Assembly (NCBI RefSeq): GCF_004010195.1
Contig: NC_057755.1
Coordinates: 2,935,498-2,956,146 of the forward strand
Source: Chiloscyllium plagiosum
Taxonomy: Eukaryota
DNA: 20,649 nucleotides
Reading direction: 5' to 3'
Under the pieces are notes generated by a model, which saw nothing but the letters and a program-made list of their open reading frames with translations, made no database searches and was not told where the DNA came from. Position numbers and translations under genes: made by a program. Numbering within the stretch: the stretch's first letter is position 1; each line of letters opens with the position of its first letter. This document shows positions 874 to 19,345 of the stretch, in pieces.

Positions 874-3822
874 TGCCAAGGAGTATGGAATTCCAACGAA
901 ATTTCTAGTCCTGCTATTACCCCTTGAAAGATCTTAGAAATAAAATGGGAACCTTGGTCTGAATCTATAGTTTCCACTATTCCATATGGTGGGATGATAT
1001 GTTCAAGGATTGTTTTCACTACTCCTTTTGAGGTAGCTGAAGACATTGGGAAAGCTTCCACTCACCCGGTTAAGTGGTCTACTATGACTAATACGTACTT
1101 TTGTTTCCCTACCAGGGGTAATTCTGTATAGTCGGCCTGTATGTTCTGAAGATGTCTTACCCTGGGATTCCTTCCAACTTTTTTGCCCTCCTCTTGTTAC
1201 CTTTTCATTAATCTTTTGGCAAATCGGGCATCCTGAGCATACCTGCTTGGCTAATGTGCATATCCCTTTCCATCCGTACTTCCTTAACACTGTGTCACAC
1301 ATAGTTTGAGACCCCCAATGACTGCCTTGGTGCAGGGTATTTAGAATGTTTCTCATGACTGGTTTACTCAACATTTCCCTCCCATCCGGGAGTATCTATC
1401 TTCCTTCACTTGTCTTAGTGGCTCCTATCTCCTGGAATTCTTTTTCCTCTTCCTTCGTATACACGAGCTTCACGGAAGGAGACTCCACTAGGGGTGTGAG
1501 AACCCGTATTTTTGTTACTGTAAGGTTCATAGCTGCCTCTTTGGATGCTTCGTCTGCGAGTCTATTTCCTCTTGCTTCTAGAGTGTTCCCTTTTGGTGCC
1601 CCGGTACATGAACTATTGCTATTTCTCGTGGTAATTCCGAACTTTTCAACACTTGTCCTATTAACTGTTCGTGTACTAATTCCTTCCCCCGGCTATTGAT
1701 TAGTCCACTTTAATGCCATATTTTTCAGAAGGTATGGAGCACCCCATCGGCATACTTAGAGTCGGTTTAAATTGTCCCATCCTGATTTTTTAGTTGTTTT
1801 AAAGCTTGGTTTAATACATACAACTCACAAGTTTGGGCCGAATATGTGCTAGGCAACCGGTCAGCCTCAACTGTTTGGTCCTTGTTACCATCTACTACTG
1901 CATATCCATTGTGTCTTTTTCCTTGTACGACTCTTGATGACCCGTCTATAAACAGTCTGCCCCCATCATGCAAGGGAATATCTTTTAGATCTGGTCTAAC
2001 CTTATCCTGATATCAATGATATCTAAACAGTCATGTCCTAATTCTCGTTTGTCCAGAGGTTTACCCTTCCATAGGAAGGTAGCTGGGTGTAGACAGGTAT
2101 CTATTGCTAACACGAGGTCATCTCTCTCTCCATCGGAATGGCTTCGTATTTCAAGATTCATGAGTCTGCCAACCATTTCCCTGCCTTTTGGTTTAACACA
2201 GTTCTGATTTGATGGGGGGTACTAACGACTAGCGCTCCTCCAAAAGTAAGGTTATGGCTCTACTCTACCAGTATGGCAGTGGCTGCCACTGCCTGTATAC
2301 ATTCAGGCCATCCTCTCAGGACAGGATCCAAGATCTTAGACAGGAAGGCTTTGGGCTGCCTCCTTCCCCCTCCCTTCTGGGTTAACACTCCTAAGGCTGC
2401 TTCATCATTTACTGTCACAAAAAGGTGAAATGGTTTCTCGAGGGAAAGCAGGACCAACACCGGAGCTTGTATTAAACTATGGTTTAGCTTATGTAACCCT
2501 TCCTTTTCCTCTTCTGTCCAGTGTAGTCTTTCATGTTCAGATTCTGTCAATTTATAATATAACCCTTTCGTTTTCTGGGCGTATGCTTCTATCCATAATC
2601 TACAATAGCCCACTAGCCCCAAGAACTTCTGTAATTCTCGTTTGGAGATCGGGAGGGGTAGTTCTACTATTCCTTTAATTCTCTCGGGGTTAATTCGCCT
2701 TGTACTCTCACTAGCAAGCTGCCATATATATTTCACTTCTTTCTCTACATGTTGCAATTTATTCCTAGATACTCTTAAACCTTGTTGCCCTAGGAAATTT
2801 AACAGCCTATTGGTGGAAGCTCACGTCATCTCTCTTTCGTCCTGACACAAGTAGATCTTCCACGTATTGTAACAGTGATGTCACTTTAGGCATCTCAAGT
2901 TGTTCCAGGACCTGTTCCAGTACTTGCTCGAATAGATTAGGTGATTCTGTGAATCCCTGGGGAAGTACCGTCCATCGGAATTGTTGCTTTCTACCAGTGT
3001 ATGGGTTTTCCCACTCAAAGGCAAACATATCACGGCTTTCTGGAGCCAGAGGGCAGGCCAAGAATGCATCCTTTAAATCTATTGCACGAAACCAGCGGTG
3101 GTGACACGGTATCTTGCCTAGCAAAGTGTACGGATTGGGAGCTACCGGGTGTCATGTTCAAACCAATCGGTTCAATGCTCTGAGATCCTGCACTAATCGA
3201 TAGGTTCTATCTGGTTTGCGGACAGGCAGTATTGGGGTATTAAAGGGTGACATACAGGGTTCTAACAATCTGGTTTTTAACAAAGAATCACTGGTTGCAG
3301 ACCTTTACGACCTTCCAGTGATATGGGGTATTGTCTAATCCGAACTGTCTTAATCTCCTGAATCAATGTAATTACCATCGGAGCAATAGTTAGATGCCCT
3401 GTATTACCCAGTCTTGCCCATACATCAGGACTGATTTGTTTTTCATCGCGAGGTGTTAACATGGTCATCTTTACGGTCACTGCACTATTTTCCACCCCAA
3501 TTTTTAAGCCGAACAAGATAATCAAATCCCTACCTAATGGATTACTTCCAATGTCGGGAGTATACAATAATTGTCCTGTCACTTCCTCATTATTTACTCT
3601 AATTAGCATTGGCTCAAAAATAGGCACGAAAAATTCTTCGCCTTTTACTCCGGAAACCCTGAGATTCTTGTTAGTCAATTTTACGCCGCCATGTCTAAAA
3701 CTTAGGGATGACCATGCTTCTCCCGTGTCCATCAAAAATACTGCCTCCTCCCCTTCAGGTCACACCTTTAGATTTATCAAGGGTTCCCGGTGGGTTTCAG
3801 GAGGAAGGAACCCCTGACTCCC
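872..3822 (-). pseudogene. pol: Retroviral pro-pol (protease, RT, RNase H, integrase), defective
   Basis: PR: FLMDTGEAWS (about 3700-3740) and LGRDL. RT: IDLKDAF, FAFEWENP, WTVLPQGFTESPNLF and QYVEDLL (YVDD mutated, 2855-2866), then FLGLVGYCRLWI. RNase H: LFIDGSS and SAQTCEL. IN: HQGSHWG..CSGCPIC, IQADYTEL, VEAFP and IDSDQGSHF, ending at FHTPWH. Confidence 0.93.
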
Positions 3823-3825
3823 CTA
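3744..3825 (-). promoter_or_regulatory. gag-pol amber stop read-through signal (TAG, purine-rich spacer, putative pseudoknot)
   Basis: The minus strand reads GAA TAG GGG AGT CAG GGG TTC..., and protease is in the same frame as gag. Stem 1: CAGGGGTTCC pairs with GGAACCCTTG. The loop TTCCTCCT can pair with downstream GGGAGGAG. Confidence 0.75.
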
Positions 3826-5337
3826 TTCCTCATCAAATGCCATTAAGGAAACAGTTTCCCTTTACCGCGTTAGTCCAGGGCATTCTTGATTAAAATGGCC
3901 CACTTTTCCACAATGGTAACATCCCGCCTGTTGCCTTCTTCCCCGGACGTCCGAACTTTGTCTTTCGTGTCCTCCTCTATCCTTATCCTTTCTATTATCT
4001 CCCAATCCTAATCTCCTCTTAGTTATTTCATCTACTGCTACCACCATCATTTTACCTTTCTGCTTCTGCTTCTCGTCCTCTCTCTTCACATGCACTTTCT
4101 GTGCCTCACGTAACAACTCTTCCATCTGTTTTTCACTCCATCCATCTATTTTCTGGAATTTCTTTTGTATGTCCAACCATGACTTTGTCACAAACTGGAC
4201 CTTCAAAAGTCCTTGCGCCACCGGTCATCAGGATTCAATCCCGAATATTTCCTTGTGGCTTCTTTGAGCCTTTGAAAAATGCCGAAGGGGTCTCGTCTTT
4301 CTCCTGCCTTACTTCAAAAGCCTTAACAAAGTTTTGTGATCTTGGCGCTGCTTCCTTAATTCCCAAGATCACCATTTCCCGAAAGTCTCTCATGCTTCCA
4401 CTATCACGTGCATTCATGCCCTCCCGTCGCTGATCTGTATTATGGAATATTTGTTCAGCCGGAGTTACTTCTTCTCCCGGAGGTATCTTCTTTCCCATTC
4501 CCTCACAGCGGCCCTTCTGATCATACCCTTTTTATTCTCCTGAGAATAACGTCCCCAATATTGCCATCATTTCCCCCCAGGTATACCAATTTGGCCCCAA
4601 AAACTGGTCTAACTGCTCCCCCAATCCCACGGGATCCTCAATTAGATTTTTTATTTCCTTTTTAAAGGCTCTGACCTCCCCACTGGTCAGCGGCGCATTA
4701 ACATATCCAATTTCACCGTTTCCAATGGGGACCTCTCTGAGAGGATATACCTGTGTGGCCCTGCCTTGTTACCTTTCTTCTCTCCTTACTGTTGATCTAG
4801 TCTTAACCTGGCTCACAGTGGAGTCCTCTTCTGGGCCTTTTTCAGATTCCTCTTCTGGGGGTTCCTCTGCTGGGGTACAGAGGGCTGGGGCGATGATCCA
4901 GTGTCATCGGGGGATGGTGGACCATCATTTCTAATGTAATAAGCGGGAGGTAAATTTGACAAAGGGTCCCAAAGGGGAGTTTTGGGTTTTTCATCCTTTT
5001 CCTCCCTTTCTTTCTTTTTTAAGACGAACATATTTTGGCTCCCTATCCAACAGGCTGCATAATCAGCCTCTTGTCGGCTTTCTTTCTCTTTGCTATTAAC
5101 ATATATATTTAAGTCTTGGCACAGCTAACCTTCATCGGACCCATATTTGGGCCAAAATATATCAGATTTCTTAATACTTTATTGTGTCCAGACTAAACAA
5201 CAATACCTTTTCATTATAAGTTTATCTTTCTCCACCGTCCAGGAGTAGTGTTCCCAATTTCCAAACATTTTCCCCAAGGGACTGTCGGACGGAATTTCTT
5301 CAAGTTTAACATTAACTATACATCAATCTTTATAGAG

Positions 5338-5560
5338 CTGGAAATGTGTTGCTGGAAAAGCGCAGCAGGTCAGGCAGCATCCAGGGAACAGGAGAATCGA
5401 CGTTTCGGGCTTAAGCCCTTCTTCAGGAAAGCCATTCCTGAAGAAGGGCTTATGCCCGAAACGTCGATTCTCCTGTTCCCTGGATGCTGCCTGACCTGCT
5501 GCGCTTTTCCAGCAACACATTTCCAGCTCTGATCTCCAGCGTCTGCAGACCTCACTTTCT
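5338..5560. mobile_element. Palindromic non-autonomous insertion, probably an inverted pair of Penelope-like pseudo-LTR ends, with a 17-bp TSD
   Basis: The direct repeat CATCAATCTTTATAGAG occurs at 5321-5337 and 5561-5577. Inverted arms at 5334-5429 and 5435-5530 are 96 bp with 1 mismatch and a 5-nt spacer. Removing the insert restores contiguous gag MA sequence. Confidence 0.85.
5434..5470 (+). ncRNA. Minimal hammerhead ribozyme-like core (mirrored on the minus strand at about 5394-5430)
   Basis: CTGAAGA-A-GGGC(TTAT)GCCC-GAAA-CGTC matches CUGANGA-stemII-GAAA..GUC. Stem III is reduced to the palindrome ACGT, and stem I pairing is imperfect. Confidence 0.55.
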
Positions 5561-5844
5561 CATCAATCTTTATAGAGACAACTTCCATTGCCTCCCATTT
5601 TTTTTAAAATTTAATTGATCTTTTCGAGGTCCGGTGTCACCTTCTTCCACATCCACTTCAGGTTCCTGACCTTCACGTGGGGGATTTCCCTTCTTAACAA
5701 CCAGTCTAAGGCTGGCTGCTAGAATTAGGTTGACACCCTTTCCCGTCCGATCAATCCGGCCAATTATATGTTATTTTTAGACCTCTCCAATTCCTCGTAC
5801 TTCTCGTACGTCCCCGACACCAAGGGAATACTTAAAGGTCCTTT

Positions 5845-5855
5845 TCTTACCTTGG
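5845..5855 (-). promoter_or_regulatory. Candidate major splice donor in the ERV leader
   Basis: CCAAG|GTAAGA on the minus strand (GT at 5850-5849), between the PBS and the gag ATG. Confidence 0.45.
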
Positions 5856-6161
5856 TCGGTGCACAGAGTCACCTGGTCATGTCAATTCGGTCGTTACCTG
5901 CGCGGCAATTCCCGCAACAGCTACTGTTACAAATTCCCGGTCGCCCGGATATATCTCGAGAGACCTTTCCTTACCCGGGTCTTGTGCACAAGAGTTACCC
6001 GAGCGAACTTGCCGCGTCTTCCTGTCTTGTTACCAGGGTCTTTCCCTAAGATCACGCTCGCTCAAAGCCGCCGCGGCAACAAGGGAAAACTAGAGATCGC
6101 CGAAGTCAGCGAGGTGCACCTTCTCCATTTCTCCAAGAATGATGAGCGACCAGAGTTTGGG

Positions 6162-6179
6162 ATCCCGGATTAGCCCCCA
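6162..6179 (-). promoter_or_regulatory. Primer binding site, tRNA-Pro
   Basis: TGGGGGCTAATCCGGGAT matches the canonical Pro PBS TGGGGGCTCGTCCGGGAT at 16/18. It lies 4 nt after the LTR-terminal CA. Confidence 0.88.
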
Positions 6180-6183
6180 AATC

Positions 6184-6674
6184 TGTTAGAAACAAACTTA
6201 CCAAAATTAGCCAAAACCCACCAAAACTGGAAACAAGACAATTTATTTTACGACCTTGCAAGAAAGGGCATAAAATGCTAAAGAAAATGAGCATTGAAAC
6301 AAGTGTACGGTTATACCTTTGAGCTGCGTGAGGTCACGTCTCCCGACTCCTACATTACCCAATCACTCTAGTTCTCTGCCTAACTTGCGACCTGACTGCC
6401 CCTACGTGACTTCTCCTTATCTTGATTAGATTCTACTTCCATCTCCTTGGGCCGTTATCTGCAACCGTTTTGTAACTATACTAACACTTGCTGTGCTAGT
6501 GTTTTCTATTGTTCTGCTTTTCTGCCTGCACAAACTTGTTTTTCCCGAAGTTTGCTAATCTGATCTTTGCCTGCAGCTGCCCTCTATACCTGTTTGTCAG
6601 CGCTATGCTGAAGCTTATTATCACTACCCTTTTTGCTACATCTGCGTAAACAACACCCTTCCCCACTTCTCACA
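6184..6674 (-). repeat. 5' LTR of the ERV (about 491 bp)
   Basis: TG...CA termini with an imperfect inverted repeat (TGTGAGAA ... TTCTAACA, 7/8). AATAAA lies at 6247-6242 and a TATAA-like box near 6315-6311. It sits immediately upstream of the PBS. Confidence 0.8.
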
Positions 6675-6986
6675 TAATGAAGCCGCACAATAATATTACT
6701 TGCAAGCTAAACAGCTGAAGCAGCGGTTAATAATCAGAGATAAGTGAATCCACGACCAAAGGTCGAAATCTCCGGTCTGCAGTTCTGTCACAACCAATCG
6801 TGAATGACTGTAGAGAATGGAACAACTCACTGGTCAAGGAGTTTATGGAAGTATAAGTGTCCTGAATAATGGGAGGGTCCAACACATCAACGGTCTACTT
6901 TAATCTGCCCAGAACCCGGACAGTGTACGGTTTTCTAATGCTTTCACTGCCTGACAGACCCTGGGAAATCCCTTAAGGTGCACATT

Positions 6987-7308
6987 GGCACGGTGGCACA
7001 GTGGTTAGCACTGCTGCCTCACAGCGCCAGAGACCCGGGTTCAATTCCCGCCTCAGGAGACTGACTGTGTGGAGTTTGCACGTTCTCCCCGTGTCTGCGT
7101 GGGTTTCCTCCGGGTGCTCCGGTTTCCTCCGGGTGCTCCGGTTTCCTCCCACAGTCCAAAGATGTGCAGGTCAGGTGAATTAGCCATGCTAAATTGCCCG
7201 TAATGTTAGGTAAGGGGTACATGTAGGGGTATGGGTGGGTTGCGCTTAGGCGGGGCGGTGTAGACTTGTTGGGCCGAAGGGCCTGTTTCCACACTGTAAG
7301 TAATCTAA
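6987..7308 (+). mobile_element. HE1-type tRNA-derived V-SINE
   Basis: A box TGGCACAGTGG, B box GGTTCAATTCC, and V-domain TGTGGAGTTTGCACGTTCTCCCCGTGTCTGCGTGGGTTTCC. The CR1/HER1-like tail is GGGCCGAAGGGCCTGTTTCC..GTAAGTAATCTAA. Confidence 0.93.
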
Positions 7309-7711
7309 ATTTGGCCTTACCACTTTCATTAGATGTTCTGTCACCCCCCGATGCCTCTTTTTGAAGTGTGTTTTTGGATTTCGTTTTGTAATCAATTATG
7401 TAAATCACCTTTGACCGTATTATTATATTCAACATGCGAGACAAATGCTAACAAATATATACTGCTTTTATTGAATGGTGTAACTTTTCCAATACAATAA
7501 AAAAAATGAAACATATCTAACAGAAGCCAGTAAATTTTATTGGCTGATATCGTTGAAACTATCGGAACATTCCCACGTGTAGAAACAATTTTGAATTGAA
7601 CTTCTGCGAACACCAGGAGAAGGGAGAATGAGAATTAACCTTTATGCAAACAACACCATCGTGTTCTTCTTTGAAGGACCGATTAGTTATTAAATTGTTC
7701 ACTTTGCCACG

Positions 7712-7935
7712 TGCCTGAAAGTGAAGTGTAGGATGTGATTCAACATATTCGAGAGGTGGAGTTACTGAGGACTGCAGATGATGCACAGATCGGCCAGGGC
7801 AAGCAGATTTATTAATTTTGGGGCAGAGATAGAAATGGGTGGTGTTGTGTTAAGGGAACTAATGTTGGAGATTACAGATGGAAGATCTCCAGAGAAGATA
7901 AGATTGTCGATGGTCTTGGAGAAGACATTTCTCGA
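7712..7935 (-). mobile_element. Penelope-like element RT fragment, highly decayed
   Basis: The minus strand gives TIDNLIFSGDLPS, then after a frameshift HFYLCPKINKSACPGR. This resembles the PLE RT motif FYxLPKIHKxxxPGRPI. Confidence 0.7.
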
Positions 7936-8409
7936 GGCAAATAACGGAAAGCAAAGCCCATCATTCAGATCCAAGTCACGTGTTGCCACATTGTTTCTTG
8001 TATGATCCTTTTGCTTTTATCTCCTGTTCCCTGTATCAACTCAAACTACAGCCACATTTCAAAGTCAAAGTAACTTTACATAGAGAGAAAAAAAAATAAG
8101 GTAGTAACAGTTGTCTCATTCAACTAACCTAATATTAATGGAATTACAAAGAGTGTGGAAAACAAAAGGGCACCAAATGTTTGCAAGAACATTCAAGAGA
8201 ATATTGTTTTCTCTTCATAATGTAAATAATAAGACAAACGAAAGTAACACAGTTCTGGATTATTTTAGGAAATTAAACTGGAAGATTGGATGAAATAGCA
8301 GTGAGTGTCTTAACCAGATGGCAATCAGATTGCAACTAGATTTGTCATCATTATGGAAAGGGACAAGGATATAAGCTTAGCTGAGTGTTGAACGTACAGG
8401 ATTGAAATA

Positions 8410-9587
8410 AAGAAGAGAATTAGGAAATCAACAACGTGATGCAACAATGCATTGACAGGAAAAACCAAACATTTGTTATCAGTACTTCAACAAACACATT
8501 AACAAACAGCATCAGGATAATTAGAAACGATGGGGCTGATCTAGGATGTAAAGGGTATCACACACTTGGATGTAGAAGATGAAGATTCTCAATAAATGTT
8601 TGTCTCAGTGACTCTTTTTTCACAAAGAACTGGATGATGCAGGCATTCTAGTTAAAGAGGAGGAATTAATTATTAGATACAACACGCATAGTTCGAGCTG
8701 AAATATCGGAAATGTTCTCTATGAAAGTGGATAAAATAAGAGAGTGATGGATTTTTCAACCGTTTAAAGGAAGCCAAACATGCAATAAGTGTCACATTGC
8801 AAATCATTTTCTAATGCTCAACAGAAATCAATGATGTCCCAGAGGATTGGAGATCTGTGAAAAATGTAGCTTGCAGCATTAAAAAAGATGTGCTATTTAA
8901 GCCTGATGTTATAGAAGGGCAGGTATGAATTCCATAGTCTGCAAAATTTTAGAATCAATTCTGACAGGAGAAACTGCCATTTGGAATTATTGTGCAGTAA
9001 GAAGAGAATGAGGAAATCAACAAAGTGAAGCAACAATGCATTTACAGGAAAAAACCAAACATTTGTTATCAGTACTTCAACAAACACATTAACAAACAGC
9101 ATCAGGATAATTAGAAACGATGGGGCTGATCTAAGATGTAAAGGGTATCACACACTTGGATGTAGAAGATGAAGATTCTCAATAAGTGTTTGTCTCAGTG
9201 ACTCTTTTTTCACAAAGAACTGGATGCTGCAGGCATTCTAGTTAAAGAGGAGGAATTAATTATTAGATACAACATGCATAGTCCGAGCTGAAATATCGGA
9301 AGTGTTCTCTATGAATGTGGATAAATTAAGAGATTGATGGATTTTTCAACCGTTTAAAGGAAACCAAACATGCAATAAGTGTCACACTGCAAATAATTTT
9401 CTAATGCTCACCAGAAATCAATGATGTCCCAGAGGATTGGAGATCTGTGAAAATGTAGCTTGCAGCATTAAAAAAGATGTGCTATTTAAGCCTGATGTTA
9501 TAGAAGGGCAGGTATGAATTCCATCGTCTGCAAAATTTTAGAATCAATTCTGACAGGAGAAACTGCCATTTGGAATTATTGTGCGGT
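8410..9587 (+). repeat. Tandem duplication, 2 x 589 bp (8410-8998 and 8999-9587)
   Basis: A direct head-to-tail repeat. About 21 differences were counted by eye (about 96% identity). Confidence 0.95.
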
Positions 9588-9900
9588 TTAGAGGTCCAGC
9601 GAGGTCTCGTAGTGGTGTGGCCAACATTGAAAGTGAGATGGCACTGAAAAGTGGCAACTCTCATTCCACTGGCAATTTGTGTTGCAGGGGAATCGTGCCT
9701 AGTCACGTGGTCTATTGCCCATGGCACGGCAATTAACAAGGAGGTCTGTAAAGTTGAAAACTTCTTCTTTATTTCTTTATTTTTGTGCAGTTATATTCCA
9801 TGTCTGGTTTTTATTTTTGCATTTTAAAATGGCGTTGCAGAGAGGCAATGCTGTACCATACTTTTCTCCGTATTTTGCAACAAAATACACCTGCAATAAA
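9588..9900 (+). mobile_element. Unclassified insertion of about 310 bp in CR1, with a LINE-like 3' hairpin and AATAAA tail
   Basis: It interrupts the CR1 homology. It ends CTTTTCTCC-GTATTTTG(CAA)CAAAATAC-ACCTGC-AATAAA, which resembles L2/Rex1-type 3' ends. Confidence 0.4.
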
Positions 9901-10460
9901 TACGTCAATTCAAGGAAGGTTGAGACATACTAAATGCCTTGCTGATGGACATAACATGGAGGATATATAACGGTAATTCAGTGGATGTTGTAAAAATGGA
10001 GTTTAGTAGGACATTTGACAAAATCCCAATTGACAGAATAGCCCGAGAAACAAAATTTTAAGGAACACAGGAGAATGTTGCCAGTTCAATCTAAAATTTG
10101 TTCTCTGAAAGGAAATTCGAGGTAATAGGTGATAGAAATTTGCGTGAATGGAAAGTTGTTTGCAACAGTATTCCACAGGGCTTAGTTTTGGATACCTTTG
10201 CATTATTTGTACATATTAATGATTTGGGTGTAAATGATGAAAGGTCGTTTGCAGACGATGTAAGTATCGCTGTTGTAGGTCAGAGTAAAGGTGATGGCTA
10301 TCAAACGTAGAATGTTGTCAGTTATTCAGTTGAGTAGGTGATGGCAAATGGTTCTCAATTCAGACAAGTGTGTGTTCGGCATTTGGGGAGGGTAAACTAA
10401 ATTCAGAACTTCATTTTGATTGAGATAATGAAAGGGTAGAGGAACTAAGACCTTCAACCT

Positions 10461-13336
10461 TAGAACATACAACATAAAGCACGGAACAGTATAACAAATA
10501 CGAACCATTCTGCCCTCGATGTTGTGCCAATCTTTTTTCCTACTCCAAGATCAAACTAAACTACATACCCTTCATTTTACTATCATCCATGGGCATATTC
10601 AAGCGTTGCTTAAATATCCCTAATGCATCTGACTCTAATACCAATGGTGGCAGCGCCTACCACGCACTCACCACCCTCTGTGTTAAAAAAAGCTCTGATA
10701 GCTTCCTAAACTTTCTTCTAATCACCGTACAATTATACCCCCACGATAGCCATTTCTGCCCTGGGAAAAAGTCTCTGACTGTTCACTCTATCTATGCCTC
10801 TCATCATCTTGTACACTTCTACCAAGTTGCCTCTCACCATTCTTTGCTTCATTAAGAAGGGACTTAGCTCCCTCAACCTTTTTTTAATCGGACATGAACT
10901 GTGGTCCAGGTAGCATCCTGGTAAATGTTCTCTGCACCTTCTCTAAAGCATCGAAATCCTTCCTATAATGTGGCGATCAGAACTGGACGCCATATTCCAA
11001 GTGTGGTCCAACAGGATTTTATAGAGCTGTAGCATAACCTCGCAGCTCTTAAGCTCAATTCCCCTGATAATGAATACCAACACATCATGTGCCTTCTTAA
11101 CCGCCCTATCAACTTAGGTGGCAACTTTGCATGGACACCAAGATCCCACTGTTCCTCCACACTGCCAAGAATCCTGTCTAAACATTGTATTCAGCATTCA
11201 AATTCAACCTTCCAAAATGAGTCACTTGTCATTTATCCAGATTGAATTCCATCTGCAACGTCTTAGCTCACCTCTACATCCTGTCAATGCAATGTTGTAG
11301 CCTGCAACAAACCTCAGCACTATCTACAACATCACTGATTTTTGTGTCATTGACAAACTTACTTCCACACCCTTCCACTTATTCATCCAAGTCATTTAGG
11401 GGCGGCACGGTGACACAGTGGTTCGTACCGCTGCCTCACAGCGCCAGAGACCTGGGTTCAATTCCCGCCTCAGGCGACTGTCTGTGTGGAGTTTGCACGT
11501 TCTCCCTGTGTCTGCGTGGGTTTCCTCCGGGTGCTCCCACAGTCCAAAAACGTGCAGGTCAGGTGAATTGGCTGTGGTAAATTTCCCTTAGAGATAGGTG
11601 CAGGGGTAAATGTTGGGGAATGGATCTGGGTGGGCGCGCTTCGGCGGGTCGGTGTCGACTTGTTGGGCCGAAGTGCCTGTTTCCACACTGTAAGTAATCT
11701 AATAAAAATTACAACGGGCAGAGGCCCAAGAACAGATACCTGCAGAACACCACTCATCACCGACCTCCAGGTGGACTACATTACATCTACTACCACTCTC
11801 TGTCTTGTTTTGCCAAGCCAATTCTGTATCCAGACAGCCAAATGTCCTTATATCCCATACCTCCTAACTTTCTGAATGAGTCTACCATGGGGAATCTTAT
11901 AAAATGCCTTTCTGAAATTATATACACCACATCCCACTGCTTGACATCCATCAGCTTGTCTTGTCACATCCTCAAATAACTCAATGAAGTTTGTGAGGCA
12001 TGACCTGCCCCTCACAAAGCCATGTTAACTGTCTTTAATCAAACTATGCTTTTTTCCAAATAAACTTTAATCATATCTCTCAGAATCCATTCCAATAACT
12101 TGCTTACAACAGACGTAAGTCTGACAGGTCTGTAATTGCCAGGCATTTCCCTATTCCCCTTTTTGAACAGAGGAACAACATTCGCTTCCCACCAACCTTC
12201 CAATACTATTCCTTTGGAGACTGCTGATGCAGAGATTATCGCCAGAGGCACAGCAATCTCATACCTCACTTGCCGTAGTAACCTTGGATATATCTGGTCC
12301 AGCCCTGGGGTCATATCCATCTTGATGTTCTCAGAATTTCCAGCACATGCACATTCTTCATATCAATCTGTTCAAGCCTATTAACCTGGTCCACAGCGAT
12401 CTCATTATCAACAAGGTAGCAAAACTTCATTTCGAGCCTCCTCTACCTCTTCAGATTCCAGACACAAGTTCCCTTCACTATCCCTGATTGGCCCAATCCT
12501 CTCTCTGATCATTCTCTTATTCTCGCAAACATGTAGAAAACCTTTGGCTTTTCCCTAATCGTTCCCGCCGAGGCTTTTTCTTGTACCCTTCTCGCTCTCC
12601 TCAGTCTGTTTATCAGTTCTTTCCGAGCTACCCAGTAATCCTCTAAAGTTATGCCAGATCCCTGCTTCCTCAGCCTAAAGTACGCTTTCTTCTTCCTCTT
12701 GACAAGAAGCTCCTCTGCTCTTGTCATCCAAGGCTCCTTCACCTTACCATTCCTTGCCTGTCTCAATGGGACAAAGTTATCCAACACTCGTTGCAAGTGC
12801 TCCTTAAACAGCCGCCACATTTCTTTTGTGCATTTTACATAGTACAATTGTTCCCAATTTGTACTCCACAACTCCAGTCTAACAGCAGTTTAATTTCCCC
12901 TCCCCCCAAACAAATACCTTCCCATACTGTCTGGTCCTATCCCTCTCCATTGCTATGGTAAAAGCGAGAGATCTGACACCTGGCCTGACCCGTTCTCTAG
13001 CACTAAATCCAATATGGCCTCTCCCCAGTCGGCCTATCTACATTAGGAGTCAGGAACGCTTCCTGGACACACCTGACACACCTGGCTCTATCCAGACCAT
13101 CTGCACTAAGAAGGTTCCAATCAATACTGGGAACGTTGAAGTCAACCATAACAATATCTCTGTTACATCTGCACCTTTCCAAGATCTGCTGTCCGATCTG
13201 GTTTTCTACCTCTCTGCTGCTATTGGGGGGTCCGGTAGAAAACACCCAATAAAGTGTCTGCTCCTTTCCCGTTACTGACTGCCACCCCTATTGACTCAGT
13301 AGACAAACCCTCCTCAACAGCCTCCTTTTCAGCAGC
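10461..13336 (-). mobile_element. CR1/HER1-type LINE, ORF2 and 3' UTR, decayed, running into the gap
   Basis: Endonuclease IVMVDFNVPSIDW, KEPWMT, TPGLDQIYPRLLR, ANVVPLFKKG..PGNYRPVRLTSVVSKLLE, SGVLQVSVLGP and WDLGVH. The 3' tail appears on the plus strand as AGAACATACAACAT near 10462. Confidence 0.93.
11399..11702 (+). mobile_element. HE1-type V-SINE inserted into the CR1
   Basis: Same A/B boxes, V-domain and GTAAGTAATCTAA tail as 6987-7308. The flanks GTCATTTA|TAAAAATTAC rejoin as continuous CR1 sequence. Confidence 0.93.
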
Positions 13337-13836
13337 NNNNNNNNNNNNNNNNNNNNNNNNNNNNNNNNNNNNNNNNNNNNNNNNNNNNNNNNNNNNNNNN
13401 NNNNNNNNNNNNNNNNNNNNNNNNNNNNNNNNNNNNNNNNNNNNNNNNNNNNNNNNNNNNNNNNNNNNNNNNNNNNNNNNNNNNNNNNNNNNNNNNNNNN
13501 NNNNNNNNNNNNNNNNNNNNNNNNNNNNNNNNNNNNNNNNNNNNNNNNNNNNNNNNNNNNNNNNNNNNNNNNNNNNNNNNNNNNNNNNNNNNNNNNNNNN
13601 NNNNNNNNNNNNNNNNNNNNNNNNNNNNNNNNNNNNNNNNNNNNNNNNNNNNNNNNNNNNNNNNNNNNNNNNNNNNNNNNNNNNNNNNNNNNNNNNNNNN
13701 NNNNNNNNNNNNNNNNNNNNNNNNNNNNNNNNNNNNNNNNNNNNNNNNNNNNNNNNNNNNNNNNNNNNNNNNNNNNNNNNNNNNNNNNNNNNNNNNNNNN
13801 NNNNNNNNNNNNNNNNNNNNNNNNNNNNNNNNNNNN
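13337..13836. other. Assembly gap (500 N)
   Basis: A run of exactly 500 N, probably a scaffolding placeholder. Confidence 0.99.
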
Positions 13837-16593
13837 CTGAAATGTTGTAGTGTCAACACCAAGATTAAAGTCTCTTTCTCAAGTGTCGATTATTTTTACT
13901 GATGAACATTTAATTTCCTGGAGAAATATCCAATTTTATCTTCTCATTGTCTTCCTGCAGCAGCACCGCACCAACACCCACATCACTGGCATTGATAGCC
14001 ACCTTGAAAGGCTTCATGTAATCCGGTGTGGCTGATACTAGGGCAGTGGTTAACACAATTTTCAGGCTGTCCAAAGCCTTTTGACAGTCTGCTGTCCACT
14101 GAACTCTTGCCCTTTATTAACAATTCAGTGAGTGGAGCAGCCACACTGCTAAACTTTGGCACAAACTTACAGTAAAATCGATTCAATCCCAAGAACAGTA
14201 GTACTGTTCCTTTTGTCAACGATGTGTAAAATTCCCCAATTACTTTCATTTTTGCTTCACGTGGGGCCATTTGTCTATGTCCAATAACATGGCTCAGGAG
14301 GGTGACTTAGGTTTTGGAAAATTCACTTTAGCTAGGTTTACCGCCAAGCCTGCCTTCCGAAGTCGATTGACCAAGTCCGATAAACGTTGGAGATGACTAA
14401 AAGTCACCAGGCCATCAACGTACACAACACAGTTGGTTAATCCGGTAAAGACCTTATTAGTTAGTCTCTGAAATGTGGTCAGAGCCTTTCTTATATCAAA
14501 TGACATGACTTTAAACTGCTACAGCCCATTTGGCATGACAAAAGGCGGAAGGCTTTTCCAGTAGCCTCTGAGCAAGTTCAACTTAGAAACATAAATTGCT
14601 TCTCCCACCTTTTCGATACAGTCCTCCAACCATGGAATTCGATATCCATTTGTCTTTTAATGGGATTGACTTTGCGATCGCCCACACATAACCGTTCGGT
14701 ACCATATGGCTTTGGCACCATGACTATGAGTGAGCTTCAGTCACTGCACAGTTTGATTATGTCATCTTGGAGCCTGCACTCTGTCTCCTTCTGAACCTGT
14801 GCCAAATTTACGGGGTTATGCCTATAATGATTTGATTAATTGGAACAGCATTTCCTATCACTATATCATGCACAATTAGGCTAGTAATTCCCAGTTTATT
14901 TCCGCATATCTCCCCATGTGATAGAAATAACTCTTTTAGGTGATTGTGATTTTTCTCAGGAATGAAACTCAATAATTTATCCCAATTTTTGACAACTTCC
15001 CCATTGTCCAATTTAATTTGAGGAATATCCAGTTCAAAACCGTCTGAGCTTGGTTCTTCCGTCTGTGCTGTTATTACAAACACCTTCTCCTCTTGCTTCC
15101 CTTCCTTATCAAAATATCTTTTAAGCATATTCACATGACACACTATGTGTGATTTCTTCCTGTCTGGACCCCGTATCAAGTAGTTCACCTCACTCAATTT
15201 CCTTTTGACTTGATAAGGTCATCTAAACCTTGCTTTTAAAGGCCAACCTTTTACTGGAAGCAATACTAATACCTTATCCCCAATTGTAAAATTGTGTATT
15301 TTTGATTTCATGTATTTTTCCTGTTTCATTGCATGCTGTGCTAATTTTAAGTGCTGTCTAGCCAACTCCCCAGCTCTATTAAATTGTTCCCCAAAATTTG
15401 ACACATAAGCTAAATGTGTGATCTCTGAATTCTGACTTCCTAATTTCTCCTAAATCAATTTAATGGTCCTCTCACTTCATGGCCAAACACCAATTCAAAT
15501 GGATTGAATTTGGCCCATTCATTTGGTGAGTCTCTGATCACAGAAAGCTCAAATGAAATTCCCTTATCCTAACCATCTGGATAGTCTTGACTATAAGCCC
15601 TCAACATGGTCTTTCGTGTTTGATGTCATCTTTCCAGCGCTCTCTGTGATTCTGGGTGGTACACAGTAGATTTGAATTGTTTCATGCCTAAGCTGTCCAT
15701 AACTTCCTTGAATAATTTCGGTGTGAATTTGATCCTTGATCTGACTATATCTCCATAGGTAGTCCATATCTAGTAAAACAAATTCAGTAGTTCCTCTACA
15801 ATCCTTTTAGCTGTGATATTGCATAATGGAATGGCCTCTGAAAATTTAGCTGAACATCCATTATTTTTGACGAATACTGATTCCCACTTCTTGATCGGGA
15901 TAGGGGACCTACGCAATCAATTAAACTCTTGTAAAATGTTTCTCAAATGTTGGAATAGATATTGAATATGCAAATTTTATTACTGCATGTGATTTCCCAA
16001 TTACCTGACATATATGACACATCTGGCAAAATTCAACTACCTCCATGTGCAGTCCAGTCCAGCCTTTTAAGCAAACCTTCATTTTTAATTGTCAATTTCT
16101 CAAGTTCAAACTCTCTCTCTTTTTCTCTCTCCTGCTGGAGCCCTTCCTTCTCTTTCTTTCACTTCTGCTAAAACCCTTCGTTTGTTTTCTCCTGAATTTA
16201 ATCGGAACTAAAACGGTTTCATTTCTGCTGCCCTTTCCTTGTCTTTCACGTCTAATTCAAGCTGTTTCATTTGCAATGGAATTCTTGCCGTCTCGACAGA
16301 TCCAGATGGTGTTTCGAACAAAAGTAAGTGCTGAGCCACTGCTGTAATCATCTCATCTTTCCTCACAATAGGAGGTAAATACAACACCAGGTTGTCTATT
16401 AATTCCTGCAGCTTGCTCGTATTTGCCTTTTGAAAAAAAAACCCAAGGTCACTATTTCCACCTCCAGAAACTTCTTGCTGCCTGAAAGAACCTTTGCTAT
16501 CTGAGTGTTGTTTAAACTAACCAAATTAACAAACAAAATGAAAGACACAACCACCTACCGCATGTTGTTTAACGCCCACAAAGAGCCTCAATC
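13837..16593 (-). mobile_element. Gmr1-like Ty3/Gypsy LTR retrotransposon internal region (gag remnant, IN, RT, RNase H), decayed
   Basis: Minus-strand order: gag N-terminus (..VRKDEMITAVAQHL, EREFELEK); IN (FCQMCHICQ, LIDCVGPL, SDQGSN, YHPESQRALER, GDKVLVLLP, HVNMLKRY); RT (FQRLTNKVF, VYVDGL, VNLAK); then FLGLNRFYCKFVPKFS and RNase H DASDVGVGAVLLQ..EKETL. Confidence 0.88.
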
Positions 16594-16878
16594 TGTTGAG
16601 GATTAGGCCAGACACATCAAAACATTTTAAGCAGGTAGTCCAGACCGTAAATTTGCTATTTGTTTAGCTATGTGTACAGTGGATATTCCCGGAGTCAATT
16701 AGCAGGGTTGCTTGCGATGTTTTAAACAAATAAAATATCTTTATAAAATTATGGAATGAAATTCTAAGAACAGAAAGCAGAATACTGGATAACGTCTCCT
16801 ATCCAAACCGAATTAATGATGCTATACCGAAAATATTTGCAACACTCCCAATATACACATACCTGAGCACAAACAGTA
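16594..16878 (-). repeat. Probable truncated 5' LTR of the Gmr1-like element
   Basis: The minus strand ends ..CCTCAACA, followed by a degenerate PBS-like TGAGGCTC. The other end is replaced by CR1 sequence. Confidence 0.5.
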
Positions 16879-16879
16879 G

Positions 16880-17285
16880 GCGTCCAGCCTGAAAAACACT
16901 CTTCCTCCACTGCCCTTTACCTTCTACAGGCAAACCAATTCTGAAGCCACACGGCTAAGCCATCATGAATGCCAGGTATTTTTTTTTCCTCTGGATGAAC
17001 TAATCATGAGGAATGTTGTCAAACGTCCGACTAAAATCCACGTAGACAACACCCACTGCTTGATTTTCGTCGGTCATCATTGTCACTTCCTTGAAAACTT
17101 CGATCAAGTTAGTAAAACATGTCCTGTCTCACTCAAAGCCATGCTGACTGTCTTCAATTTGGACAAGCCTTCCAAAATGTGTGTAAATCCACACCTTAAC
17201 AATTCTCTTCTACGAATATCCAACCACAAATGTGAGACTCGGCTGTCTGTAGTTTCCTGGAATATCCCATCTCCCTTTTATTATC
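16880..17285 (-). mobile_element. CR1 RT fragment
   Basis: Similar to the 11760-12170 part of the CR1 above (CCAATTCTG, AAAGCCATGCTGACTGTC). The minus strand gives AVGVVYVDFSRTFDNIPH. Confidence 0.8.
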
Positions 17286-17319
17286 CCAAAGAAGATATTG
17301 GATTGATTCCAGGTGCTGT

Positions 17320-17730
17320 CACAGAAATTTGGAGGAATGAGACATGATCTAATTGAAATGTCTGACCTTCTGATGAATGGGCAAGCGGGAAGCTATGTTA
17401 GTACTTCCCTTTACTGGGGGAGCACGGGGAAAAGCAGGCACAATCTCAGGATATGGGATGGGCCATTTCGGACTGAGATTGGAGCATATCTTTCCAGTTT
17501 TGGGGGGTGGGCGGTGATGATCACATGAAATTCTCTACCACAGAAATCTATGGAAGACAACTCATGTATATATTGATAAAATAAATGGGCAGATTTCTAA
17601 AGATAAAAAAGCCTCATGAGGAATTGGGGGAGAACAGGTATATGGAATTGGATAGAGGATCAGCTATGATCAAGTTAATTGTGAAGCAGAATTGATGAAC
17701 CAATGCCCTCCGCTTATGTCTACTATCTAT
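17320..17730 (+). mobile_element. CR1 3' fragment, old
   Basis: MRHDLIE, RHNLRIWDGPFRTEI and NSLPQ-like motifs, plus a CR1-type 3' UTR (GAGGATCAGCTATGATC). Confidence 0.7.
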
Positions 17731-18419
17731 TTTTCCACACATCCCACTCGATCACATAAAGCTCTTTGTGTTGTATCTATTGGGATTTTGAATGATTGAT
17801 TTGATTCGATTGTCATTTTTTTTATTTTACACATAATGCACATTTTCTGGCATCATTTAAACAATTTAAGATATAGCTTAAAGAGACTCCTTAACTTTCT
17901 TGCTGCCACCAGCCTCGAAGTTGCCACTACTCAAGTGACATCTTTCACTGCTGGGTCGATCTCGCCGATGGCGCCTCCACTGATGTAACAGCCTGGTCCC
18001 ATGCTCGCCACTTTGCCAGGTGCCTCCTCCATGCCAATGCACGTGTCCCGTTCAACGCTCATTGGCTTTCGCCTACAACTTGTTACTGTTGGCACCATGA
18101 CCAAGCTCATCCGAAAAGGTAAGTACAAGGCAAGAAAAGAAGGAGAAAAGGAAAAAGCAAAGAAAAGAAGACAGTGTGGATGAGGCCCGGGTTCAAGAGC
18201 CTGAATGCTGGCTACTCCACAATCAGCATACTGTGTTATGTTTTATTTTGGCGATCAGTTTAACATTCACACATATAAAACTAAGGGACATGCCTCGAGA
18301 CTACTGTCAGATCTTTTGTTTAAGTACTAATTGAATAATTAATGTGAGAGGATGTTTCATCATCTCCCTGAGTTGCTCTCTGAACTTCAGTTGAGTTGCC
18401 ATATAAACAAATGTGCATG

Positions 18420-18779
18420 GTTTGTGAAGGTTTGTACTCAGGTTGAGGTTTAGGGTGTCGGTTTGCTCGCTGAGCTGTAGGTTTGATATCCAGACGTTTC
18501 ATTACCTGGCTAGGTAACATCATCAGTGGCGACCTCCAAGTGAAGCGAAGCTGTTGTCTCCTGCTTTCTATTTCTTATCTTTCTCCTGGATGGCGTTCCT
18601 GGGGTTTTGTGGTGATGTCATTTCCTGTTCGTTTTCTGAGGCGTTGATAGATGGCATCTAGATCTTTGTGTTTGTTTATGGCATTGTGGTTGGAGTGCCA
18701 GGCTTCTAGGAATTCTCTGGCTTGTCTTTGCTTAGCCTGACCCAATAGATGTGTTGTCCCAGTCGAAATGGTGGTTTTT
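18420..18779 (-). mobile_element. Penelope-like element 3' end (C-terminal part of the GIY-YIG endonuclease region plus pseudo-LTR)
   Basis: NHHFDWDNT, then LGQAKQRQAREFLEAWHS..AINKH, followed by a 3' region containing a hammerhead motif. Confidence 0.88.
18490..18529 (-). ncRNA. Minimal type I hammerhead ribozyme of the Penelope pLTR
   Basis: CCA-CTGATGA-T-GTTACCT(AGCC)AGGTAAT-GAAA-CGTC-TGG. It has an intact core, a 7-bp stem II, stem I CCA/TGG, and a palindromic ACGT in place of stem III. Confidence 0.75.
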
Positions 18780-19345
18780 TGCAACTGTGTGTTGCAAATT
18801 AAACCATACGGAAGTAATAGCGTTAAAATCAAAACAGTAAACCCAATCCATCCAAGCTCAATAAAATAATTGTCCTTTTAATAGCAGAACCATGAACGTT
18901 TGGCAATGACCTATCGGTCATATATAAAGTAGAAGGGGATATTTGTAAAACAGAGCTGAATACAGGTTATTGAGAGGACAAGAGCTGCATTTTTCTGGGT
19001 GCAATATTTCGTTTTCAGGTTCTGAAAACAGATGGCAACAAATCAATCAAAGGAGAATATGACTGTGAACCAGACCGAGCGGTTTGTGGCTGAAAGAATC
19101 AAAATATTGTCAGCATGAAAGACAACGGGAAATAATAATATTTAAACTGCCATAGTATGACTTCAATGATTATAACGAATAGATCTGCAGTCGCCATGGC
19201 CACAAGATAGCGACTGGTGCAGGTTGGGATGCCGCAGTTTCCTTGGAACAAGATCACAATTGTGAGTAAATTAACTGCAAGTGAAATAACAGAGCATAAC
19301 ATCTATGAATTACAAATGGAAGCAATCTCACAGACATAAAATTAT

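Follow-up and report, generated by a model that had tools for sequence, protein, structure and literature searches.

A hammerhead-bearing hairpin insert in a Chiloscyllium plagiosum endogenous retrovirus, most likely the dead remnant of one insertion by a Penelope-like element

A broken endogenous retrovirus (ERV) of Chiloscyllium plagiosum is interrupted by a short palindrome with a minimal hammerhead core on each strand, which raises the question of whether this palindrome is a mobile element in its own right or the debris of another. We addressed this question in the 20,649 nucleotides of contig NC_057755.1 from position 2,935,498 to 2,956,146, referred to below as the window. The insert comprises two head-to-head copies of a hammerhead-bearing repeat end, one tailed and one tail-less, between duplicated target bases. 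We consider it most likely the dead, 5′-truncated product of a single insertion by a Penelope-like element (PLE), with its mirror arm likely built at that moment and its ribozyme predicted to be silenced by the hairpin. The relevant features are as follows.

1003 to 6180, minus strand: broken ERV hosting the insert, with gag, RT, RNase H and integrase pieces
5321 to 5337, plus strand: left copy of the target site duplication (TSD), 17 bp of host ERV sequence, 71% AT
5338 to 5429, minus strand: left arm, the inverted tail-less repeat end, equivalent to 5435 to 5526/5530
5399 to 5426, minus strand: minimal hammerhead core, the 5′ strand of its stem I shortened by the junction, 2 bp possible
5430 to 5434, plus strand: head-to-head junction spacer, which, judging from loose ends, resembles the family's own upstream letters minus 2 nt
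5435 to 5530, plus strand: right arm, a forward copy of the repeat end, whose family is high-copy in related organisms
5438 to 5465, plus strand: minimal hammerhead core, with a predicted cut after 5465
5531 to 5560, plus strand: one-sided extension or PLE "tail", 30 nt (34 nt including microhomology), belonging to the same repeat family in reads
5561 to 5577, plus strand: right TSD copy, from which point the repeat family diverges

The 223-nt insert (5338–5560) is bounded by an exact direct repeat (5321–5337 and 5561–5577, identical at 17 of 17 positions), for which the probability of a chance match over 40 × 40 placements is about 1.5e-7. The inverted arms (5334–5429 and 5435–5530) are complementary at 95 of 96 positions, the sole mismatch falling within the stem II loop, and are separated by the 5-nt spacer, with a further 30 nt on the right side. 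The last 4 nt of the left TSD copy double as the end of the left arm, a microhomology, and the 5′ end of that arm points to the center of the palindrome. The hairpin fold has a z-score of −28 relative to 200 shuffles, and the flanks of the insert are 70–74% AT, compared to 58% for the whole window. The first-pass annotation of this DNA had described the 223-bp insert, the 17-bp duplication, the arms, the spacer and about 30 extra nucleotides, all of which we find at the coordinates it gave; the extension is exactly 30 nt on the plus strand and is identified here with the known PLE tail. Separately, two runs of branch-point, pyrimidine and AG motifs, in the arm (5493–5512) and at the tail boundary (5528–5539), are visible in the letters, and we take them to resemble 3′ splice sites.

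A minimal-hammerhead descriptor matches three times in the window, at the two arms and at a second PLE stub described below. In 100 shuffled windows, the same descriptor matched 0.01 times on average and never more than once. The two cores lie at 5438–5465 on the plus strand and 5426–5399 on the minus strand, the GUC triplet occupying 5463–5465, so that a core on each strand with GUC ending at 5465 is present just as had been annotated. The plus-strand core is followed through an extra nucleotide, a 4-bp stem II, a GAAA loop and a palindromic stem III stub, and the insert thus carries the catalytic core, the extra nucleotide after position 9, the G10.1–C11.1 pair and the palindromic stem III stub of minimal hammerhead ribozymes (min-HHRs). 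Helix I is short, with 2 bp, a U-U and then 1 bp in the plus arm and 2 bp in the minus arm, compared to 4–5 bp in the min-HHR reference; a family variant at 5468 (8–33% of depth) would pair the U-U of the plus arm. The variants listed, which are part of a longer list, fall at position 7, in loop II and at CpG sites. A search of Rfam gave no match to a hammerhead family at E ≤ 5, only hairpin (miRNA) models far below their gathering scores, which appear because the insert is a hairpin. Single arms folded alone showed no stable hammerhead fold (z 0.1–0.6), but since the second PLE stub gave none either, this negative is uninformative.

The architecture around these cores is what points to PLEs. 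In the accessible text of PMC8557442 and PMC8969392, PLE insertions are described as strongly 5′-truncated, often next to an adjacent inverted copy, with a 30–40-bp tail at one end, and the rotifer element Pen2a is reported to have an inverted pLTR, a 31-bp tail, a 9-bp TSD and palindromes at its head-to-head junction (PMC3846280). The insert has a terminal-repeat hammerhead, an inverted and 5′-truncated head-to-head copy, a one-sided tail of 30–34 nt (5527/5531–5560), and a host-derived TSD at an AT-rich site, identical at 17 of 17 positions and distinct from the repeat family, which has another letter at 5562 in 92–98% of its depth. By analogy, then, the layout of the insert is a pattern already described for PLEs, and the initial proposal of a PLE-type min-HHR in an inverted-pLTR arrangement with a TSD is supported, both motif and layout matching published PLE units. 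The putative PLE membership of the arm family is argued from this architecture. A BLAST comparison of the arm with the second PLE stub in the window gave no similarity, and the arm repeat is presumably the end of a Neptune-type shark PLE.

We aligned four of 24 candidate sequence runs, from three related organisms, to 5405–5800 at 85% likeness. Organisms A and B each contributed what is probably a set of DNA contigs, with a raw RNA run for A in addition, and organism C a set of contigs that are probably RNA-derived. All four are from relatives and none from the source of the window, the best run containing 0.41 of the words. The runs gave 63,689, 69,381, 2,832 and 14,951 aligned records, and one arm is a huge, very high-copy repeat family in the three organisms. 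Depth jumps at 5433, peaks at 5489–5502, steps down at about 5517–5530 (in part from subfamily divergence and in part from ends) and collapses past 5561, a profile from which the arm and the 30 extra bases form one high-copy unit, with the 17-mer outside it. An ERV-like contig free of element sequence covers 5562–5644, which suggests an empty site as far as the aligned letters of that contig show.

The palindrome itself is far scarcer than its arm. Depth in the bin 5419–5432 is 0.26%, 0.36%, 1.5% and 0.09% of that in the bin 5447–5460 in the four runs, values that are rough lower bounds, and the single arm thus outnumbers the center about 65- to 1000-fold in depth. We note that contig depth is not copy number, that hairpins may be under-represented in contigs and PCR, and that palindromes with other centers register as loose ends, such that these data give no overall share of fold-backs and no count of the exact junction. 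Where the center is covered it varies: a 5-nt loss that yields a perfect palindrome occurs in 8, 13 and 4 contigs, another 4 and 11 contigs lack 2 nt, and there are substitutions at 5432 and 5434. Strand switches make up 8 of the 15 joints listed, with 30 further joints outside the list, every switch at a different pair of breakpoints, although rare joints of this kind may be library chimeras, and 6 of the 15 listed joints break at 5526–5529, the site at which the left arm ends.

Outside the alignments, a FUBP3-like isoform annotated in Chiloscyllium plagiosum has a translated copy of the arm as its C-terminus (residues 560–591, identical at 28 of 32 positions). This end is either an exonization or an annotation artifact, and the copy confirms the arm family in sharks, without a PLE ORF. 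A protein database search with one frame of the insert gave no match near its length, returning only this exonized copy and two low-complexity repeat proteins, which we rejected as artifacts. Prokaryote and viral collections scanned with a first motif gave 0 matches; a gapped motif gave 3, 3 and 14 loci in such collections, which we set aside as chance matches, with 0 of 20 similar to the insert by BLAST. A literature search that reached few subscription papers returned no description of this shark repeat family.

How could a single insertion build such a structure? In the first of two routes, the GIY-YIG endonuclease of a PLE would nick both strands 17 nt apart at an AT-rich site, and one 3′ end would prime reverse transcription at a distal start at 5560, tail included. 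The other end, aided by the 4-nt microhomology, would prime at a proximal start at 5526–5530, giving a copy without the tail; both cDNAs would halt 3–9 nt upstream of the hammerhead core and be joined head to head, and fill-in would then create the TSD. The arms would come from one template or one source copy. We infer all of these steps. The present analysis itself yielded the anatomy, the size of the family, the variability of the junctions and the energies of the folds; the PLE insertion signature, the two start sites for reverse transcription and the nicking of both strands are taken from published work. In particular, an anole PLE protein is reported to nick and extend both strands, preferring AT-rich DNA, and to initiate reverse transcription at two sites flanking the tail (PMC11167929).

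The second route needs one primer only. Here, a cDNA started at the tail would stall upstream of the hammerhead, fold back on 1–2 complementary bases, copy itself as far as 5526–5530 and join the other target end through the 4-nt microhomology. Both arms have C at 5523, where T accounts for 72–97% of depth in the four runs, so that the arms derive from one template, and this common allele, together with the near-identity of the arms, the almost symmetric breakpoints, the 5-nt loop and the recurrence of the perfect-palindrome center in several contigs, is as expected from fold-back. (At 5480, the allele shared by the arms is the minor one in three of the four runs and the major one in the fourth.) Self-priming is, moreover, how junction palindromes of rotifer Penelopes, which have TSDs of 8–10 bp, are read in the accessible portion of PMC3846280. 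Fold-back alone, however, gives no reason for the mirror arm to stop where the tail begins, which is the recurrent breakpoint noted above, and asymmetric junctions such as 5433/5504 and 5433/5527 are a better fit to two independent truncations. On balance, we regard fold-back as a realistic but minority account of the insert, an assessment that overlaps with that of the PLE explanation, of which it is a sub-mechanism producing the same PLE stub. Within the single-insertion explanation, we lean slightly toward the two-primer route, with fold-back given somewhat less than an even chance. A literature search with thin coverage of subscription papers found no test of the two-primer model for PLE inversions, and the accessible text of PMC8557442 and PMC3846280 describes the way in which PLEs acquire their tails and inverted repeats as undefined.

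Two further observations concern where copies begin. Loose ends pile up at 5433–5434, just upstream of the core and not at the cut site, a position partly forced by the reference turning into the mirror arm at 5433. One strand-switch joint, 5436/5468, recurs in all four runs and could, within its 2-letter ambiguity, begin at 5466, the first base past the predicted cut; among the joints listed with letters between their two parts, a list that leaves out 64 others, 7 of 12 break at 5463–5471. Joints in this interval may hint at cleaved RNA templates, and a 4-nt repeat (5434–5437 and 5467–5470) could be an alternative cause of them.

The pile-up at 5433–5434 also bears on the nature of the parent. 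With the low agreement of the loose ends there (0.32–0.59), it looks as if many copies start nearby, which would be accommodated by a one-arm parent, a short, SINE-like non-coding RNA of about 130 nt whose start lies just upstream of the hammerhead and which a PLE mobilizes in trans, with palindromes formed at insertion. The enormous size of the family and the lack of an ORF link in the one-frame protein search are in line with such a parent, and non-autonomous PLE derivatives have been proposed (bioRxiv 10.64898/2026.07.22.740005, as far as its accessible text goes). However, the pile-up is in part forced by the reference, and the loose ends share family letters both upstream of 5433 and beyond 5561, with low agreement (0.32–0.59), shared letters beyond both ends of the unit that indicate a longer parent. 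Heavy 5′ truncation, furthermore, is described as typical of PLEs (PMC8557442; PMC8969392). We therefore consider a short-RNA parent quite unlikely, and retain truncation of a longer PLE as the preferred reading.

A different proposal goes back to the first-pass annotation, which saw a retrozyme-like PLE derivative that would give almost the same RNA from both strands and could alternate between a hairpin and a ribozyme fold; on this proposal, the palindrome would be a self-propagating unit. The intact cores on both strands speak for it, and some contigs and about 20–30 RNA reads do cover the center near 5430. The depth data, however, show an arm in vast excess over a rare center with variable breakpoints, and the arrangement of the cores is unfavorable. 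The two are 11 nt apart and fully complementary to each other, and opening the core with stem II formed costs 46.9 and 47.3 kcal mol–1 in the two transcripts. In this head-to-head arrangement, transcription of either strand reaches the antisense arm first and the sense core afterwards; as each transcript has one sense core, the dimer fold lacks a partner in cis, whereas min-HHRs are reported to be inactive as monomers (PMC4209133). The insert also has no same-strand tandem of hammerheads, which retrozymes require according to the accessible text of PMC7229834. Thus, the head-to-head arms are predicted to silence the ribozyme and not to switch it, and both the proposed switch and the retrozyme-like palindromic unit fare poorly; we judge this reading very improbable. 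No pile-up of read ends was seen at the predicted cut in the libraries used, which consist of relatives' contigs and one poly(A) run from single cells and are uninformative for cleavage. Read-through of the insert would, on the modeled fold, give about 92–96 bp of dsRNA and is a possible siRNA source, as with any hairpin of 92–96 bp. The copy studied here is probably inert.

The long inverted arms and the flanking duplication would also be found in a fold-back DNA transposon (MITE). In the insert, however, the inverted repeat stops 30 nt short of the right end, the TSD is 17 bp long, and the arm is abundant on its own and carries a hammerhead core, so that a MITE is hardly credible. MITEs are recognized by inverted repeats that reach both termini and by a TSD of short, constant length; the insert shows neither, and we rejected this class. 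The earlier preference for a retro-origin over a MITE is thus upheld by the one-sided extension, the 17-bp TSD and the abundant one-arm copies. Hairpins are, in addition, a known class of artifact, the window is a gapped scaffold (500 bases of N at 13337–13836), and none of the four aligned runs spans the locus. A fold-back created in assembly or library preparation would nevertheless not come with exactly duplicated 17-bp flanks, a tail on one side and a mismatch between the arms, and we give an artifactual origin almost no weight.

The insert sits in the leader or 5′-gag region of its host ERV, which is presumably of an epsilon/gamma-like subgroup. Four of the nine ORFs scanned against Pfam match Gag_p30 (below cut-off), zf-CCHC, RVT_1, RT_RNaseH_2 and Integrase_H2C2, and the longest open stretch within 1000–5320 is 186 codons. 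A probable 5′ LTR, within 6159–6700 on the minus strand, adjoins a primer-binding-site-like stretch at about 6160–6180, which we take to be of tRNA-Pro type. The leader at 5629–5712 reaches depths of 5,500–19,000 in two runs (X1 and X2), compared to a few hundred in its neighbors, which suggests a motif common to a larger ERV family. We searched the window for a second LTR of the host ERV and found none, and without an LTR pair there the provirus is undatable from the window. The nesting makes the insert younger than the ERV, as had been claimed; "much younger", however, holds only loosely, since the arms and TSD differ at 1 of 109 sites (0.9%, 95% interval 0.02–5.1%), inverted arms can be homogenized, and the ERV is undated.

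The same window contains a second, independent stub of this kind.

18430 to 18775 (approximately), minus strand: second PLE stub, with a GIY-YIG C-terminal piece, then a minimal hammerhead (core at 18526 to 18493) and an AC-rich end

Its core is the same as that of the insert, with a different, 7-bp stem II, and directly follows the protein piece. This piece is 76% identical to a protein of the shark Stegostoma that has weak RVT_1 and GIY-YIG matches (E 0.007 and 0.003, below cut-off). A TSD was sought around this stub and none was found. The stub serves as an internal control that agrees with the PLE reading of the hammerhead end. Protein relatives of the sequences in the window come from Hemiscyllium, Stegostoma and Chiloscyllium. 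The remainder of the window also holds a tandem duplication of about 590 bp (8410–9587, 96% identical) and a repeat of about 300 bp in two copies that are 80% identical (6987–7308 and 11404–11702), in which ARAGORN finds no tRNA and which we assume to be SINE-like. A Gypsy-like integrase C-terminal piece (14808–15218, Pfam Integrase_p58_C) lies within 13983–16516 on the minus strand; the other stretches, at 458–937 and 12039–12889, gave no Pfam match and are presumably LINE fragments.

The single locus matters little beyond showing, cleanly and in compact form, how PLEs are already known to insert. The value lies in the population, as each stub holds the nick stagger (as the TSD), both start sites of reverse transcription and the junction within about 250 bp, and with all three records in so short a span, the two-primer and fold-back routes become separable by counting. 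A bolder scheme, which we put forward as speculative and rather unlikely, is that a short non-coding RNA starting just upstream of the hammerhead is the source from which the shark family spreads, and that a PLE protein acting as a dimer uses the two start sites of reverse transcription to prime both target strands, each hairpin stub then recording one two-primer reaction with the nick stagger equal to the TSD, and some copies starting at the ribozyme cut. Were this scheme true, thousands of stubs would form a natural data set on the formation of PLE inverted repeats and on ribozyme action in vivo. For annotation, such hairpins call for caution, as they mimic miRNA precursors and MITEs.

Finally, the insert can be set against four known systems, for which the papers are drawn on as far as their accessible text extends (further comparison literature: PMC6155905, PMC6765202). 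The closest are the insertion units of EN+ PLEs (Arkhipova et al. 2013, PMC3846280; Craig et al. 2021, PMC8557442), which likewise have a head-to-head inverted 5′-truncated copy, a single tail (30–34 nt in the insert), a TSD, an AT-rich target and a junction palindrome. The insert differs from them in having no ORF, the whole unit being a 223-nt hairpin whose putative PLE kinship is argued from architecture, and its TSD of 17 bp exceeds the 8–10 bp of the rotifer units (PMC3846280). With the min-HHRs of metazoan PLEs (Cervera and de la Peña 2014, PMC4209133), the insert shares the core, the extra nucleotide before stem II, G10.1–C11.1 and the palindromic stem III stub, whereas its stem II has 4 bp and not the 7–8 bp reported for schistosomes, and its stem I is weak. 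That study also reported, in 2014, opposed pairs on opposite strands 100–700 bp apart; in the insert, a mere 11 nt separate the two cores, and mutual silencing is predicted.

The anole Poseidon element PAc (Frangieh et al. 2024, PMC11167929) has, downstream of its hammerhead, two 3′ ends with a tail between them, as well as an AT-rich site, and it extends both strands in vitro, which would yield the layout of the insert. Its hammerhead is described as protein-dependent and as dispensable for insertion in vitro. The sequence family of PAc differs from that of the insert, and inverted junctions of the type seen here are extrapolated from its biochemistry. Lastly, metazoan non-LTR retrozymes (Cervera and de la Peña 2020, PMC7229834; Li et al. 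2026, bioRxiv 10.64898/2026.07.22.740005) are, like the insert, non-coding, hammerhead-bearing and PLE-related, with TSDs longer than 4 bp. Retrozymes, however, are tandems arranged head to tail, in which two or more hammerheads lie on the same strand and from which circRNA is produced, whereas the copies in the insert face each other head to head and each strand has a single sense core.
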